Positions 6,031 through 44,338 of a stretch of 64,000 nucleotides of DNA are shown piece by piece; position 1 is the stretch's first letter; each line of letters starts with the position of its first letter. The notes beneath the pieces were generated by a model, which was not told where the DNA came from, ran no database searches, and saw only the letters and a list, made by a program, of their open reading frames with translations. Both the position numbers and the translations under genes were made by a program. The stretch covers positions 128,001 to 192,000 of the forward strand of contig CAVQFQ010000017.1 in NCBI GenBank assembly GCA_963711835.1. The letters run 5' to 3'. Origin of the DNA: an uncultured delta proteobacterium. GTDB taxonomy: Bacteria > Desulfobacterota > RBG-13-43-22.

Positions 6031-6066
6031 TTTTGATAAGGGCGCTACGTTTAGAATACAGGGCGA

Positions 6067-6371
6067 TTAAATACTAAGCAAAGATCTTTGCAATTTTTTC
6101 TAAAGTCCTGAATAAATGGTGTAGGGGGGCCCTATTTTTTAAGTTGTCCAAAGGGTGACTAAGAGCCCCTAATCCGGCCCGAATAACTAAGTTTATGTTA
6201 GAGCAGGGCATTCACCAACGCCTATTTCCAGCCTGGGTGTAGGCCTGCTGATGAAATAGGGTTCGCATTTTGGCCCGGCAAAGAAGCTTATGGCTTTGGG
6301 GTGGACAACTCAAAAAATAGGACCCCCCTACACCTGATATTTGAAAATTAGATATAAATTCCCAGAATTAA
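6067..6371. repeat. Non-coding element copy 1: core 6118-6334 bounded by 33-bp inverted repeats, inside TTAA-bounded flanks
   Basis: ggtgtaggggggccctattttttaagttgtcca (6118-6150) vs tggacaactcaaaaaataggacccccctacacc (6302-6334), 31/33; homologous to 9560-9862 and 43971-44241. Confidence 0.9.
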
Positions 6372-6463
6372 GAGTATTACAATCTATCAAATGTAAGGAA
6401 GAAAGAGTTCTTAATCAAGGAAAAAAATGATATAGTAAGCAACCTCTTTTTTGGACACCTCCA

Positions 6464-9490: not shown

Positions 9491-9559
9491 ACCCTTGTTT
9501 TTGAAAACCTAAAGGAGAACTGAAATTTCTTGACCCTTGACAGGGACAGGAAAATCAGG

Positions 9560-9862
9560 TTAAAACCCAAGCAAAGATATCCGAAATTTTTTCCCAAGTC
9601 TTGAAGGAATGGTGTTGGGGGGTCCTATTTTTTAAGTTGTCCACCCCAAAGCCAGGAGCTTCTTTGCCGGGTCAAAATCGGATAGTGTTTTGGCAGCAGG
9701 CCTACACCCAAGCTGGAAATGGGCTGGGGTGTAGGCCCTGCTCTCAAATGATCTTAGCTATTCGGGCCGGATTGGGGGCTCTTAGTCACCTTTTGGACAA
9801 CTTAAAAAATAGGACCCCCCAACACCGGATATTGGAACGTTAGAGATATATTCTCAGATTAA
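9560..9862. repeat. Non-coding element copy 2: core 9611-9826 with perfect 33-bp inverted repeats; interior inverted relative to copy 1
   Basis: ggtgttggggggtcctattttttaagttgtcca (9611-9643) / tggacaacttaaaaaataggaccccccaacacc (9794-9826); interior matches the reverse complement of 6151-6301, flanks match copy 1 directly. Confidence 0.9.
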
Positions 9863-9930
9863 AAAATGTAAAAATCTGATTGGGTTGGATTATGTCCGAT
9901 CTTAATCACGATTCTATAAGGAGGATTTTT

Positions 9931-13402: not shown

Positions 13403-13597
13403 ATGAGCCGTAGGGTGACCATCAACGAGGAAGAGTGTATCGGCTGTGGAACTTGTTCGGAGCTTTGTCCGGAAGTCTTTCAGATGAACGAAGAAAAAGA
13501 AAAGGCCGAGGTGATCAAACCGGAAGGCGGGGCGTTCGATTGCATTACCGAAGCTATGGAGGGTTGTCCGGTTTCTTGTATTCACTGGGAGGAATAA
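13403..13597 (+). CDS. Monocluster [4Fe-4S]/[3Fe-4S] ferredoxin (copy 1)
   Basis: CIGCGTCSELCPEVF...CPVSCIHWEE. Confidence 0.95.
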   Translation: MSRRVTINEEECIGCGTCSELCPEVFQMNEEKEKAEVIKPEGGAFDCITEAMEGCPVSCIHWEE

Positions 13598-14708: not shown

Positions 14709-14897
14709 ATGAAAGTTTATCTTGTGGAAGAGGAATGTATCGGCTGTGAAAGCTGTTCGGAGCTCTGCCCGGAGGTTTTTCAGATGAACGAGGAAAAAGA
14801 AAAGGCTGAGGTGATCATGCCCGAAGGGGGACCGACGGAATGCATTAACGAGGCCATTGAAACCTGTCCAGTCTCCTGCATCCATTGGGAGGAATAA
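14709..14897 (+). CDS. Monocluster ferredoxin (copy 2)
   Basis: MKVYLVEEECIGCESCSELCPEVF...CPVSCIHWEE; close paralogue of 13403-13597. Confidence 0.95.
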   Translation: MKVYLVEEECIGCESCSELCPEVFQMNEEKEKAEVIMPEGGPTECINEAIETCPVSCIHWEE

Positions 14898-17131: not shown

Positions 17132-17290
17132 GTTCGTGTCCTTTCGGTTGCTTCAATTGAATGTTATACAACCAGAAAGATATTAACATATGATCATAAA
17201 GGGTTCACTCATTAAAAGGCACTTGTTAAGAGAAAAAGGATTTCTGGTTTTTTGTATTGACAGCGAGAAGAACCTTAGTGATTTTTACTT

Positions 17291-17364
17291 AAGGGGAACC
17301 GACGGAATGCATTAACGAGGCCATTGAAACCTGTCCAGTGTCCTGCATCCATTGGGGAGAATAA
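17291..17364 (+). pseudogene. 3' fragment of ferredoxin (direct repeat of 14824-14897)
   Basis: 70/74 nt identical to the 3' end of ferredoxin copy 2, including the stop codon. Confidence 0.9.
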
Positions 17365-18465: not shown

Positions 18466-18590
18466 AAATTCGAAATCCGAAACAAATTCAAATGATCAAA
18501 TTTAAAAATCGAAACGTTTTTGTTTTGATCATTTAGGTTTTGGACCTTCGTACTTGTTTCGGATTTCGTGCTTCGTATTTCGAATTTATA
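18466..18590. repeat. Heptad-periodic palindromic intergenic repeat (copy A)
   Basis: aaattcgaaatccgaaaca...tgtttcggatttcgtgcttcgtatttcgaattt; close copy at 40363-40471; preceded by (gatrctg)3 at 18396-18417. Confidence 0.8.
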
Positions 18591-18633
18591 GGTCCTCATG
18601 TTCAAAGGCTAACGAGATAAATTCTCAGATTAA

Positions 18634-21672: not shown

Positions 21673-22803
21673 ATGCTGGAACGCCTCAAGCAGATATTGA
21701 TCAAGGAATTCATCCAGATCCTTCGGGATCCCCGAGTCAGGGGCGTGGTTTTTGCCATGCCGGTTATTCAAATGGTCCTCTTCGGGTATGCGGTGACCAC
21801 CGATGTCAAGCATGTGGCCACGGCCGTTTATGACCTGGACCAGAGCGTTGCCAGCCGGGAGATCGTGGCCCGTTTTGTCCGATCGGGGTATTTCGACATT
21901 GTTTCCCATGTGACCCGGGAAGAAGAGGTGCAGGCTCTGCTGGACCGCGGACAGGTCCAGGCCCTGCTGCGCCTGAACAAAGGACTGGAAGAAAACCTGA
22001 AAGGCGGGAGGCCGGCGGCCATCCAGCTTATCGTGGATGGGACCGATTCCAATACCGCCGCTATTGTCTTAAATTATAGCGGCAAAATTGCGGCCGAATA
22101 TTCTCAGGAAATTTTAATAGACCGTTGGGCTCGCCTGCGTGGCCTTAATCAGAAACCGGGGCGGGTGGAGTTGGAGTCCCGAGCCTGGTTTAATGAAAAC
22201 CTGGAGAGTCGAAATTTTTATGTGCCCGGCGTCATCGCTTTGCTGGTCATGCTCATCACCCTGATGTTAACCAGCATGGCCGTGGTCCGGGAAAAGGAGA
22301 TCGGGACCATGGAGCAGATCATGGTCACTCCCATTACTCCGAAGGAATTTATTTTAGGGAAGACCATTCCTTTCGCCCTGATCAGTTTCATTGATGTGAT
22401 CTTGATCACCCTCGTGGGGGTATTCTGGTTCGAGGTCCCTATCCGGGGAAGTCTGTTGTTGCTCCTCTTGGCCACCGGGCTTTATGTCATGACCACCCTG
22501 GCGGTAGGACTTTTCATTTCCACGGTCAGCCGCACCCAGCAGCAGGCCATGATGAGCGCCTTCTTTTTTAACTTTCCGGCCGTGCTGCTCTCGGGATTCG
22601 TCTTCCCCATCGCCAATATGCCCGAAGTGATCCAGTGGCTCACCTACCTCAATCCCCTGCGGTATTTCCTGATCATCATTCGCGGGGTTTTCCTTAAAGG
22701 GGTGGGATTCATGATTCTCTGGCCGCACATGGCGGCCCTGACGGTAATGGGCCTGCTGACCTTGTGGCTGGCCTCGCGAAGGTTTCAAAAAACCATGACC
22801 TAA
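21673..22803 (+). CDS. ABC-2 permease (YbhR-like)
   Basis: IKEFIQILRDPR, VREKEIGTMEQ, LSGFVFPIANMP. Confidence 0.92.
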   Translation: MLERLKQILIKEFIQILRDPRVRGVVFAMPVIQMVLFGYAVTTDVKHVATAVYDLDQSVASREIVARFVRSGYFDIVSHVTREEEVQALLDRGQVQALLRLNKGLEENLKGGRPAAIQLIVDGTDSNTAAIVLNYSGKIAAEYSQEILIDRWARLRGLNQKPGRVELESRAWFNENLESRNFYVPGVIALLVMLITLMLTSMAVVREKEIGTMEQIMVTPITPKEFILGKTIPFALISFIDVILITLVGVFWFEVPIRGSLLLLLLATGLYVMTTLAVGLFISTVSRTQQQAMMSAFFFNFPAVLLSGFVFPIANMPEVIQWLTYLNPLRYFLIIIRGVFLKGVGFMILWPHMAALTVMGLLTLWLASRRFQKTMT

Positions 22804-22931
22804 CAGGTTGATGAAAAACGCCCATCTGCTGTGTTGCCCTCGTCCCTCGTCATACCGGCGTACTTATATGTACGCCTCATTCCTCGGAAGTTCGGGCGCC
22901 TTGCATCTGAGCATTTTTGATCAACCTGTTA
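22801..22931. mobile_element. MITE-like element with IS5/IS1182-type ends
   Basis: taacaggttgatgaaaaacgc ... gcatttttgatcaacctgtta terminal IR, flanked by CTAA/TTAA; internal ggcgtac-N-gtacgcc hairpin; no ORF. Confidence 0.7.
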
Positions 22932-22970
22932 ACTCAGGTTTGGATTAAATCACCAAATATGGAGGCGGGT

Positions 22971-37396: not shown

Positions 37397-38497
37397 AAAG
37401 CGGGACGCTCTTTAATAATTTAATTGACATTGTAGCCTGATGATATTAATAAAGAAATATGCCTAGAACAGCACGACTTGATGCTCCCGGCGTTCTGCAC
37501 CATGTCATAATTCGGGGAATAGAACGCAGGAGGATATTCCGTAACGATAAAGATCGTGAGGATTTTATTGAACGGCTTGAGACTCAATGTACTGAAGCGC
37601 AGACAACCTGTTATGCGTGGGCGTTCATGTCTAATCACGCCCATTTTCTTTTTCGTACTGGAACGGCGCCATTGTCCAAACTCATGAGCCGTCTGCTTAC
37701 GGGGTATGTTATCGGTTTTAACCGCCGACACAAACGCCGTGGTCAATTATTTCAGAACCGGTACAAATCTATAATCTGTCAGGAAGATGCGTACCTTAAA
37801 GAATTGGTCCGGTATATTCATTTGAATCCTATTCGTGCGGGAATAATTACTGGTTTGGAGGAATTAAAAAGCTATGACTATTGCGGTCATAGTGCTCTAA
37901 TCGGCACAAAGAAAAGGGAATGGCAAGACACGGATTATGTGCTCGCCTATTTCGGGAAAAGGAAAACTCAAGCGCGGAAAGATTATGAATCATACGTTAA
38001 TGAAGGACATCAACAAGGTCGAAGGAGAGAATTAACCGGAGGGGGACTGATCCGGAGTCTTGGCGGCTGGACCGAGGTAAAAAGAGAACGTTTGAAGGGG
38101 CGGGATCATGTTATGAGCGACGAACGAATCTTGGGTGATTCGGATTTTGTCGACTTAATCATCTCACAATCCGAGGAACAATTCGAACGGAGACATAAAC
38201 TAAAACGGCAAGGGTTTGATCTGGATCGTATTGCTGAGAGAGTGGCTGAAGTCTTAAACATGGACAGGGATGAAGTCTTATCAAAGGGGCGGCAGAACAG
38301 AAAAGTAAAAGCAAGAAGTATTCTGTGTTTTTGGGCTGCAAGGGAATTAGGCATGTCCCTTACAGCGCTAGCCAGGATTTTAGGAATGAGTATTGCTGGA
38401 GTGGGGTTTGCCGTGGAAAGGGGAGAGCTCATAGCCAAAAATGGCAATTTTAATCTGATAAACTGACTTATTAAGTTACTAAAGAGCGTCCCGCTTT
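37397..38497 (+). mobile_element. Inverted-repeat-bounded unit carrying a RAYT-like transposase
   Basis: aaagcgggacgctctttaataatttaat (37397-37424) vs the reverse complement of 38470-38497, 26/28; lower GC than flanks. Confidence 0.75.
37459..38466 (+). CDS. HUH Y1 transposase (REP-associated tyrosine transposase-like) with C-terminal HTH
   Basis: MPRTARLDAPG.LHHVIIRG, AWAFMSNHAHFL (HUH), GQLFQNRYKS, LVRYIHLNP (catalytic Tyr). Confidence 0.9.
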   Translation: MPRTARLDAPGVLHHVIIRGIERRRIFRNDKDREDFIERLETQCTEAQTTCYAWAFMSNHAHFLFRTGTAPLSKLMSRLLTGYVIGFNRRHKRRGQLFQNRYKSIICQEDAYLKELVRYIHLNPIRAGIITGLEELKSYDYCGHSALIGTKKREWQDTDYVLAYFGKRKTQARKDYESYVNEGHQQGRRRELTGGGLIRSLGGWTEVKRERLKGRDHVMSDERILGDSDFVDLIISQSEEQFERRHKLKRQGFDLDRIAERVAEVLNMDRDEVLSKGRQNRKVKARSILCFWAARELGMSLTALARILGMSIAGVGFAVERGELIAKNGNFNLIN

Positions 38498-40362: not shown

Positions 40363-40471
40363 CAAATTCGAATGATCGAATTTCGAAATCCGAAACGTTT
40401 TTGTTTTGATCATTTGGATTTTGAATCTTCGGGCTTGTTTCGGATTTCGTGCTTCGAATTTCGGATTTATA
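40363..40471. repeat. Heptad-periodic palindromic intergenic repeat (copy B)
   Basis: Aligns with 18483-18590 (shared gaaacgtttttgttttgatcattt and cttgtttcggatttcgtgcttcg). Confidence 0.8.
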
Positions 40472-40474
40472 GAC

Positions 40475-42173: not shown

Positions 42174-43801
42174 CTACCCCAAGATGGCTTTCAGGTCCGC
42201 CTCCGGGGTGCTGATGGGCATGATGTTGAAATTCTTCACCAGGACATCCAGCACATTGGGGGTGATGAAGGCCGGCAGGGAAGGCCCTAAGCGGATATTC
42301 TTGATGCCCAGATAGAACAGGGTCAGCAGGATGGCCACGGCCTTTTGCTCGTACCAGGACAGGATCATCGACAGGGGCAGATCATTCACCCCGACATTAA
42401 AGGCCTTGGACAGGGCCACGGCGATCTGGATGGCCGAGTAGGCATCGTTGCACTGGCCCACGTCCAGCAGGCGGGGGATGCCTCCGATATCGCCGAGGTC
42501 CTTATCAAAAAAGCGGAACTTGCCGCAGGCCAGGGTCAGGATGACGGTGTCCTTTGGGGCCATCTCGGCAAACTGGGTGTAATAGTTTCTCCCCGGTTTG
42601 GCGCCGTCACAGCCGGCGACCAGGAAGAAGTGACGGATGGCCTTGTTTTTAACGGCCTCGATGACCTTATCGGCCACGCCCATGACGGCATTTCTTCCAA
42701 AGCCGCAGGTGACCGATTTCCCGTTGCTGTTCTCGGTGAAACCGGGCAGGGACAGGGCTTTTTCGATCACCGGGGTAAAATTCTTATCGGCAATATGGGT
42801 GACCCCGGGCCAGCCGACCAGACCGGTGGTAAAGATATTGCCCTGGTAGGATTCCTTGGGCTTTTGAATGCAGTTGGTGGTCATGAGGATGGCCCCGGGA
42901 AATTGGGCGAATTCCCGGGTCTGATTCTGCCAGGCCGTCCCGTAATGTCCGTAAAAATGGGCATATTTTTTTAACCCCGGGTAGGCGTGGGTGGGAAGCA
43001 TTTCCCCGTGGGTATAAACAAAAATTCCCTTGCCTTCGGTCTGTTTGAGGATCTCTTCCAGATCCTTCAAATCATGGCCTGAAACCAAAATGGCCTTGCC
43101 TTTCTTGGCCCCGAGGGGAACTTTAGTAGGTACCGGATGGCCGTAGGTGCCGGTATTGGCCGCATCCAGAAGTTCCATGGCCCTTAAGTTGATCTCACCG
43201 CACTTCAATACCAGCCCGACCCAGTCATTCAAGGTTAAGGTTTTATTTAAGGGCGCAGCCAGTCCTTCGTGGATAAAGGCATAGACCTTTTCGTCTTCCT
43301 GTCCCAGGATCCGGGCATGATCGGCATAGGCCGCTACCCCTTTAATCCCGAAGGTAACGGTCCATTGCAGGCCATGGATATCGCGGTCGGTGGTGGTATC
43401 GGACTGAATCCCCACTCCCTCTCCCTGCTTGACCAGTTCTTCCTGAGTGGCCGCCGGCTGCAGCCTGGCCGGTCCGTCCGAAAAATCCCCTTTTCCTCCG
43501 GCGGCCTTTACCTTGGCCTTGAGATCCTCACGAAGCGCGACCGTTCGTTTGATCAGGGTAATCAACCGCTCCGGATCAAAATCCACATTGGTGAGGGTGG
43601 AAAAAGTGGCCTCGCAGGTAAAGACATTAACGGCCCGGTCGCTGAGACCGACTTTCCTTCCTTCCACGGCTACCAGGGAAAGACCCCTGAGGGCATAAAT
43701 CAGAAGGTCCTGAAGGGCCGCCACCTCGGGCTGCTTGCCGCAGACACCCACTCGGTACAGCCGGTTCCTTTTGCTGTTTGTTCACATTGATAACAAAACA
43801 T
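42174..43801 (-). CDS. hcp: Hybrid cluster protein (hydroxylamine/NO reductase); frameshift near 43752
   Basis: MFCYQCEQTAKGTGCT / GVCGK, SGHDL, YTHGEMLP, TTNC, GCDG, LACGK, GQCNDAYSA, SWYEQKA. Confidence 0.97.
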
Positions 43802-43902: not shown

Positions 43903-43931
43903 AAAAGATTTTTTTTCTAAAAATAGAGTTT

Positions 43932-44296
43932 GTCCCAAAGTTACGTGATTTTTAAGCCATCCATTCATAGAGGGCTTCAGGGGTCTTGATTTCAAGGTTG
44001 TCCGAAAGGGTATCCGTAGCCCCAAACTGGGATCCACTCCGCAGGAGTGGGACTGAGCATTGTTTTGGATGCGAAGAACCCGGCCAGAATTTCTAAGTTG
44101 GTTGGGAGCCGGGCATTCACCTAAGACGATAAATCGCCTTGGTGTTGGCCTGTTTCAAAATCCCATTATAAACTTCCTGCCCGGGTTCAGGCTGTTGGCG
44201 TTTTGGCGGACAATCCTTGAAATCAAGACCCCTGAAGCCCTTTGGTAATATTTAAGAGGCTACCCCTTCGGTTTGAGAATTACGTAACTTTGGGAC
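43932..44296. repeat. Non-coding element copy 3: nested inverted repeats (outer MITE-like 27 bp, inner 34-35 bp) around a structured core
   Basis: Outer gtcccaaagttacgt.. 43932-43958 / 44270-44296 (23/27); inner 43971-44004 / 44207-44241 (one bulge); core shares ccggcc.gaat..ctaagtt, gagc.gggcattcacc and ggtgt.ggcctg with copy 1. Confidence 0.85.
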
Positions 44297-44338
44297 TATC
44301 CTAAAAAATAGGTTCTTCTCCCGACAACCCGGGAGAAA

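Follow-up and report, generated by a model that had tools for sequence, protein, structure and literature searches.

Insertion sequences of the ISH6 family (p-MULT 2, Mutator-like) are characterized, in the parts of their description drawn upon here, by inverted repeats of 18-39 bp, direct repeats of 8-9 bp, an AT-rich target and a conserved terminal C (PMC3942029). The 377-bp element described below, found in the hcp-mscS spacer of an uncultured delta proteobacterium, resembles them in the length range of its inverted repeats, in ends that start with G, in its 8-bp duplication and in its AT-rich target, but it contains no transposase and carries a 215-bp foldback cargo. The ends of ISDesp5, an ISH6 member from an uncultured Desulfobacterium, start with GGTAGCG in two Table S1 rows of the same source (PMC3942029); they differ from the ends of the present element, referred to as shell A, and look closer to those of another shell, B.

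The Correia/NEMIS, RUP, ERIC and MaeMITE families of bacterial MITEs are short and non-coding, with terminal inverted repeats, a target duplication, many intergenic copies, stable predicted folding and a transposase acting in trans, and the present element is like them in these respects, the need for a transposase in trans being likely in its case (PMC3184786, PMC3733652). It differs from them in that one module is found in at least four shells, one of which is without terminal inverted repeats, and in both orientations. Neither a multi-shell module nor two orientations is described for those MITEs in the portions of both papers used here, and the words 'inversion' and 'passenger' are absent from PMC3184786.

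Nested repeats and inverted spacers have each been described elsewhere. REP elements lie within longer palindromes in A. variabilis (GTAG-15) and H. neapolitanus (CGTC-1), which in the sections of PMC3733652 considered here makes them appear the closest precedent seen for a 53-nt cassette of the present element, itself a small GC-rich hairpin in other palindromes. The cassette is unlike them in having no GTAG/CGTC tag, AA borders, mostly a GNA loop and no RAYT or Y1 gene found beside it. In yeast, template switching at inverted repeats with spacers of 2-5 bp was reported, in the part of the study relied on here, to cause arm homogenisation and spacer inversion (PMC8604942). The repeats analysed here are alike in arms that share changes, in inverted spacers and in recurrent independent events; those in yeast lie in genes, whereas here spacers of 150-200 bp belong to a bacterial mobile element for which we infer the mechanism. 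In the literature covered, which was mostly open-access and did not extend to ISfinder, no description of the family, the module or the cassette was found.

The element in the hcp-mscS spacer

The window is the whole stretch of 64,000 nucleotides that was analysed. It belongs to a source genome assembly of 3.9 Mb (G000) that is 89% complete, with 6.4% contamination and duplicated loci. The features of the element and its surroundings, together with two other copies of its module in the window (copies 1 and 2), are as follows.

43926..44302, no strand assigned: whole non-autonomous shell-A MITE, 377 bp
43918..43925, plus strand: target duplication, left 8-bp copy
44303..44310, plus strand: target duplication, right 8-bp copy, 7/8 identical to the left one
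43926..43958, plus strand: left terminal inverted repeat, its first 25 bp identical to one end of the ISH6 element of metagenome locus L015
44270..44302, minus strand: right terminal inverted repeat, with T as terminal base where most family ends have C
43971..44004, plus strand: left arm of the inner inverted repeat, 27 bp perfect plus TTGTCCG
44207..44241, minus strand: right arm of the inner inverted repeat, with a 1-nt bulge at 44214
44004..44207, plus strand: core of the shared hairpin module, 151 nt plus the 53-nt cassette, in the shell-A majority orientation
44026..44078, plus strand: 53-nt cassette, with AA before it and AA at its end; cassette-free copies have one AA
44034..44050, plus strand: cassette hairpin, 7-bp stem and C-GCA-G loop
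43888..43901, no strand assigned: FNR-like (HcpR-type) box upstream of hcp, a host feature outside the element
44315..44338, minus strand: terminator-like hairpin after the mscS-family gene, a host feature; the T-rich run beyond the hairpin is the insertion target
6117..6335, plus strand: copy 1, the same module in shell D, without terminal inverted repeats
9610..9827, minus strand: copy 2, the same module in shell D, in the opposite orientation relative to the shell

Only short open reading frames (36-62 aa) overlap the 377 bp. An outer inverted repeat of 27 bp had been placed at 43932 by the initial annotation; 23/27 positions do pair from there, but the element actually ends at 43926 and 44302, 6 bp beyond that repeat on either side. 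In the same way, the flanking target duplication that it proposed is present, though at 8 bp with 7/8 identical, the 9- and 10-mers given at the time having taken in one terminal element base per side. Its inner inverted repeat at 43971-44004 and 44207-44241 is recovered once a bulge and the pairs beyond it are included: 27/27 perfect pairs (43971-43997 with 44215-44241), the 1-nt bulge and then 7 more pairs (TTGTCCG/CGGACAA). The hairpin-bearing insert estimated at about 50 nt is exactly 53 nt long, and contigs that skip precisely these 53 nt were observed in 2/4 runs of one contig set and 2/3 runs of another. The whole unit is predicted to fold far better than its shuffles (z -11.4, 0/100 shuffles as good).

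The contigs used for the junctions and the empty site come from other samples, no sequencing run holding half of the locus words. In run X3, a 132-nt contig passes directly from 43917 to 44303 and leaves out 385 bases (377 + 8), so that the empty site expected in a relative is seen with one target copy left; this contig is a single one, of depth 2.1, from a relative with 7 differences in 86 nt. The match of a second contig, of depth 14.3, begins exactly at 44303, and a run X2 contig crosses the filled left junction. In the other direction, the site opposite metagenome locus L035 is cleanly empty in G000, and the element is also missing from G000 opposite L034 and L036.

The box TTGAC-N4-GTCAA is the only match in the window and lies 24 bp from the element, in agreement with the roughly 30 bp initially noted for an FNR-type box of hcp. 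It can be likened to the FNR-like HcpR signal as presented in the part of PMC545781 used here. It is conserved in 13/13 relatives examined, out of 20 searched, and the module is directly upstream of hcp in 0/13 of them, one having a partial match about 300 bp away. Because the box is kept where the element is absent, the closeness of the two looks incidental: the element, which is positioned between the mscS terminator-like hairpin and the box, would simply have entered an AT-rich target in a spacer. As a separate observation, the hcp start (ATG at about 43801, minus strand) is one base out of frame near 43750, and an extra base is present there in related contigs from two runs; the frame break at 43750-43801 is an assembly error or a strain frameshift.

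The window contains other short repeats and coding stretches. Two further small intergenic repeat or inverted-repeat families were observed, at 18471-18591 and 40379-40472 for one and at 22791-22941 for the other. Three related short coding stretches with a CPVSCIHWEE-type ending, which we take to be ferredoxin-like, are located at 13427-13597, 14727-14897 and 17278-17364, the third with a stop codon.

ISH6-type ends and candidate transposases

Shell-A ends are dispersed throughout the source genome, where 44 paired and 25 unpaired matches were found. One pair, 2372 bp long, is false; it is counted among the 44 and left out of the 43 used for the duplication analysis, in which an 8-bp duplication (at least 7/8 bases) was observed in 30/43 paired copies against a permuted mean of 1.6 and maximum of 8, and at no other length. 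The target is AT-rich, with a consensus of about NAAWWTTN, similar to the ISH6 target AANATNTT in another register, and G is the first base, read on the strand of the end itself, in 81/88 paired ends. Shell A is an ISH6-type MITE, short and non-coding with terminal inverted repeats, an 8-bp duplication, empty sites and many dispersed copies. The initial proposal that the outer inverted repeat is a transposing shell is upheld by the duplications and the empty sites.

Scanning metagenomes with the shell-A end motif returned 29 loci, three of which run on into a transposase gene. Two of them, L015 and L037, are complete; each has a 439-aa open reading frame scoring 434 and 425 bits, respectively, on the NCBIfam ISH6 model (NF041731; cut-off 240), and their ends share 25/25 and 24/25 bases with the left end of the element. 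Both are without the 215-bp foldback cargo, and their flanks have no orthologue in G000. The suggestion of IS5/IS1182-type ends was wrong, the ends being those of ISH6 (p-MULT 2, Mutator-like); an IS5/IS1182 origin was also rejected on the absence of the shell-A end from 30 DDE_Tnp_1 loci examined, of 167 family matches. A 16/19 match of the inner arm to the beginning of the ISH6 open reading frame (E=0.56) was treated as chance.

A transposase with matching ends had been anticipated, and it exists in the metagenome loci L015 and L037 but was not found in the own genome, where tblastn and further searches of the 89% complete assembly detected no ISH6 transposase. No such protein exceeded the family cut-off in 21 family genomes; the PF06782 search for an own-genome partner is a weak test, with no match in any control genome either. 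The shell-A end pattern was found in 0 of the GTDB genome contigs, no ISH6 protein was confirmed in viral contigs and plasmids gave no match to the element. Since no transposase is present inside the element and none was found in G000, it is regarded as an ISH6-dependent derivative and not as an insertion sequence. Promoter targeting of the p-MULT 3/4 kind (about 16 bp upstream of the -35 box) was considered and set aside, 113 A ends and 86 B ends giving no TTGAC peak at any distance.

Other transposable elements were seen in the same genome. A 335-aa Y1 transposase with a DnaA-type HTH is encoded at 37397-38497 in the window, with 28-bp inverted repeats on both sides, and about ten relatives with similar GGGGAC/GGGGTC ends are present in the genome. 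At C15:169709-171355 in G000 (L069), an IS110 element apparently lies in the right end of a Y1 element.

A hairpin module in several shells and two orientations

The initial annotation had reported a core in common with copies 1 and 2, which is confirmed by local scores of 50 and 35, where shuffled sequences average about 15 (0/1000 shuffles reach either score). The identity of 18/24 that it gave for the inner part of the arms is right for both arms of copy 2; for copy 1 it is 17/24 in both arms. In contrast, the view of the element as a third, diverged member gives way to a much larger family of about 130 core loci. A core profile search of the 3.9-Mb genome detected 132 loci, 104 of them with paired inner arms, and these were assigned to shells A (41), B (27), D (16), C (15) and B2 (3), two being mixed. 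The inner hairpin module is about 215 bp long and occurs in at least four distinct shells. Its presence was observed, with a 17-copy model, in 15/20 other family genomes (weakly in three) and in 0/146 sampled genomes of other families of the phylum. Across genomes at about 70% identity, the core keeps a length of 149-152 nt and several near-invariant motifs, TTGTCC/GGACAA being near-invariant between genomes; this conservation of motifs and length is inflated, because length and one of these motifs were among the criteria by which copies were chosen.

The flanks of copies 1 and 2 had been interpreted as decayed versions of the present shell. No alignment rose above chance (best 29/500 shuffles in 16 comparisons), and these flanks are in fact shell D, without terminal inverted repeats and conserved over 16 copies and in relatives. 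Shell A is distinct from the shell D flanks, and B and C differ too, so that the same module is carried by several different shells. In shell B, 8-bp duplications were likewise observed, in 26/32 pairs, and shell C is found in a TTA-rich context. A TTAG-containing direct repeat was observed at both ends of shell D (6050-6400 and 9540-9890; 16 paired copies in G000), and shells C and D are the forms observed in relatives. No duplication flanking the module within its shells was seen by eye. Among 102 loci with IS110, DDE_Tnp_1, Y1 or ISH6-like genes, no convincing partner appeared for shells B, C or D or for the cassette, and the two IS110 copies of G000 bear no resemblance by eye. C-type shells with two other hairpin cargos, unrelated to the module, were observed in G000 at C17:44045, C17:393247, C4:480182, C9:3998, C13:34219 and C4:87118.

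Orthologous sites also differ in their content, with loss in place of the module or of the element as a whole. For L029 and for L014, what separates the site from its G000 counterpart is the whole module, the G000 orthologue of L031 has just an 11-bp end remaining between two copies of the target duplication, and module-free shells of about 120 bp are joined at short direct repeats. At C22:75372-75672, G000 has a D-like element where a relative (L016/L033) has shell A, both with the module; this site is a hotspot or a replacement.

Inverted cores were observed in 18/87 oriented copies (A 9/37, B 3/22, C 2/15, D 4/13), a count from which the assembly duplicates C27:3884, C27:8513 and C1:85 and two mosaic cores were dropped and in which five shell-A orientations were set by eye. 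Among scorable metagenome loci, 5/18 were inverted. On the core tree, the inverted shell-A copies require 8 changes against 8.2 for shuffled labels, and only 2 orientation changes are forced by strongly supported branches. The two arms share deviations more often than permuted ones do (13 vs 4.7 in shell A and 20 vs 5.0 in shell B), counts that keep the assembly duplicates, one duplicated locus giving 2 of the 13; in shell A, 37 single-arm deviations are left. Arm matching is no better in inverted than in forward copies (p=0.21). The arm bulge moves with the core in 35/39 shell-A copies and stays in 4, terminal hexamers are swapped in some copies, mosaic cores exist and the central loop, on inspection, is reversed between shells A/B and C/D.

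The inner inverted repeat had been thought to provide inversion or folding. Both orientations and a strong predicted fold were found; a working switch was not, orientation being the same at 3/3 orthologous sites (a small sample), breakpoints being several and no serine recombinase being found. A two-tier element, with outer ends serving transposition and inner arms at which a dedicated site-specific recombinase would invert the core, perhaps as a switch, is improbable. In favour of such an enzyme are the two orientations found in each of the four shells as well as in independent metagenome contigs, the near-invariant TTGTCC/GGACAA, the crossover within the outer 27 bp in 35/39 shell-A copies and the 7 tyrosine-recombinase matches and 2 IS110 genes of the genome. 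Nevertheless, besides the agreement of orthologous sites, orientation is skewed by about 4:1, none of the joints listed across 6 contig runs changes strand, and arm sequence is free to differ between shells, yet stays complementary. The bulge interior, the outer ends and the central loop were also sites of exchange, no recombinase was found among the scanned neighbour genes of the element and no sigma-70-like promoter was found in the core. Template switching is preferred to an invertase on account of the scattered inversions, the like orientation at 3/3 orthologous sites and the spread of breakpoints over several nested stems; by inference, it may account for inverted cores, matched arms, mosaics and direct-repeat deletions alike, and a RecA-type exchange between arms is also possible. 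It is hardly credible that orientations and mosaics are assembly artefacts of hairpin-rich repeats: the contamination and duplicated loci of G000, deletion-type errors in one copy and the possibility that mosaics are polishing mixtures would fit, whereas independent JGI contigs also contain inverted cores, and at one locus the inversion is shared by G000 and L017/L023. A very low probability is likewise given to the module being a conserved structured RNA or regulatory DNA kept for the host and here tuning hcp or mscS, to which its conserved length and motifs, its occurrence in 15/20 family genomes, its strong predicted folding and the small share of locus words in two RNA runs might point. 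Against it, the window has no Rfam match, and 44 diverse C/D-type copies (70% mean identity) have their top complementary covariation between the outer arms and none along core stems. Core and central loop are moreover found in both orientations, the site is polymorphic, and the element sits between a terminator-like hairpin and a box that is conserved without it.

Altogether, the element is probably a gene-less 377-bp MITE with ISH6-type ends, likely served in trans by an ISH6-family DDE transposase, with a hairpin module that is likely passive cargo flipping occasionally by polymerase template switching. An ISH6-family DDE transposase, for which L015 and L037 provide candidates, would act in trans on the element ends, and the inner module would be carried passively between sites inside its shells. 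Replication through the long foldback would then invert cores, match the arms to each other, create mosaics and cause deletions where short direct repeats occur, and the 53-nt cassette would join later, separately in several copies. The length and motifs that the module keeps across genomes sit less easily with passive cargo.

The 53-nt cassette and the meaning of the nested repeats

The cassette is present in 11 distinct shell-A copies with a mean identity of 99.3%, compared with 88% for the flanking cores, a figure that takes in a second small insert of five copies. A single clade was rejected for the 10 carriers among 37 treed copies (AU p=7e-5; 7 changes), and over the upstream 20 nt carriers are no more alike than other copies (2.44 vs 2.63 differences); the duplicates C27:3884, C27:8513 and C1:85 and two mosaic cores were left out of both counts. 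At the orthologous insertion in metagenome contigs L017 and L023 the cassette is missing, both contigs ending inside the repeat with possibly chimeric interiors. At least 5 different host repeats contain related cassettes bordered by AA in the same way, 28/30 loci have a GNA loop, and cassette variants follow their host repeat family. In single-stranded DNA, a GNA loop with C-G as its closing pair is very stable. The cassette pattern was detected in 7/13 family genomes versus 2/387 others and in 0 viral contigs.

Judging from these comparisons of copies, the cassette is a later addition that seems to have been gained separately in several copies, with self-insertion and gene conversion about even. 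It is quite possible, though somewhat short of an even chance, that it is a very small mobile element in its own right, whose insertion target is an AA within hairpins of other repeats, and an HUH/Y1 or IS110-type mover would fit its missing terminal inverted repeats. PATE-like HUH derivatives are small GC-rich hairpins inside other palindromic repeats, also without terminal inverted repeats. The higher identity of the cassette than of its surroundings, the non-monophyly of its carriers, its absence at the orthologous insertion, upstream flanks that do not co-vary with it and identical borders in different host repeats all argue for self-mobility. On the other hand, no mover was found beside it: cassette ends were absent beside Y1, IS110 and ISH6 genes in 30, 30 and 12 loci, 1/30 DDE loci has a cassette, and no Y1 transposase was flanked by the cassette hairpin in 30 loci examined of 210 family Y1 matches. 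In addition, variants track the host family, as amplification or conversion would give, no cassette was found in shells B, C and D of G000, and L017 and L023 could be chimeras. With the same, slightly less than even, probability, the cassette entered shell A once and was then spread by ectopic gene conversion between copies, which would also shuffle other family-wide variants. Such variants do toggle at orthologous copies (L024 vs C27, L013 vs C5), and a cassette variant specific to each host family is consistent with this; but there is no co-conversion within the upstream 20 nt, and conversion cannot account for the same cassette type and borders in unrelated repeats. A system of three levels, in which unrelated shells share one movable 215-bp foldback module and the GNA-loop cassette is a self-mobile hyperparasite inserting precisely at AA in the hairpins of other MITEs, is a tentative and rather unlikely proposal.

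Further small palindromic cassettes were observed within the module or replacing parts of it, some of them stacked, for example at C4:288138 and C5:178452 in G000 and in L115, L121, L149, L150 and L153. The repeat at 22791-22941 of the window resembles a host repeat of the 53-nt cassette in relatives, and L177, from a genome of another family, holds a cassette-like unit in tandem repeats.

As a MITE the element is ordinary; what it adds is a candidate transposase and a documented empty site for a bacterial MITE of the ISH6 type, and with both in hand its mobilisation is directly testable. The approximately 130 related hairpins in one genome offer a natural record of foldback mutagenesis, through inversion, arm matching and collapse, at the scale of 150-200 bp. 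Were the cassette to enter other repeats on its own, it would rank as an unusually small mobile element, and a precisely targeted one.
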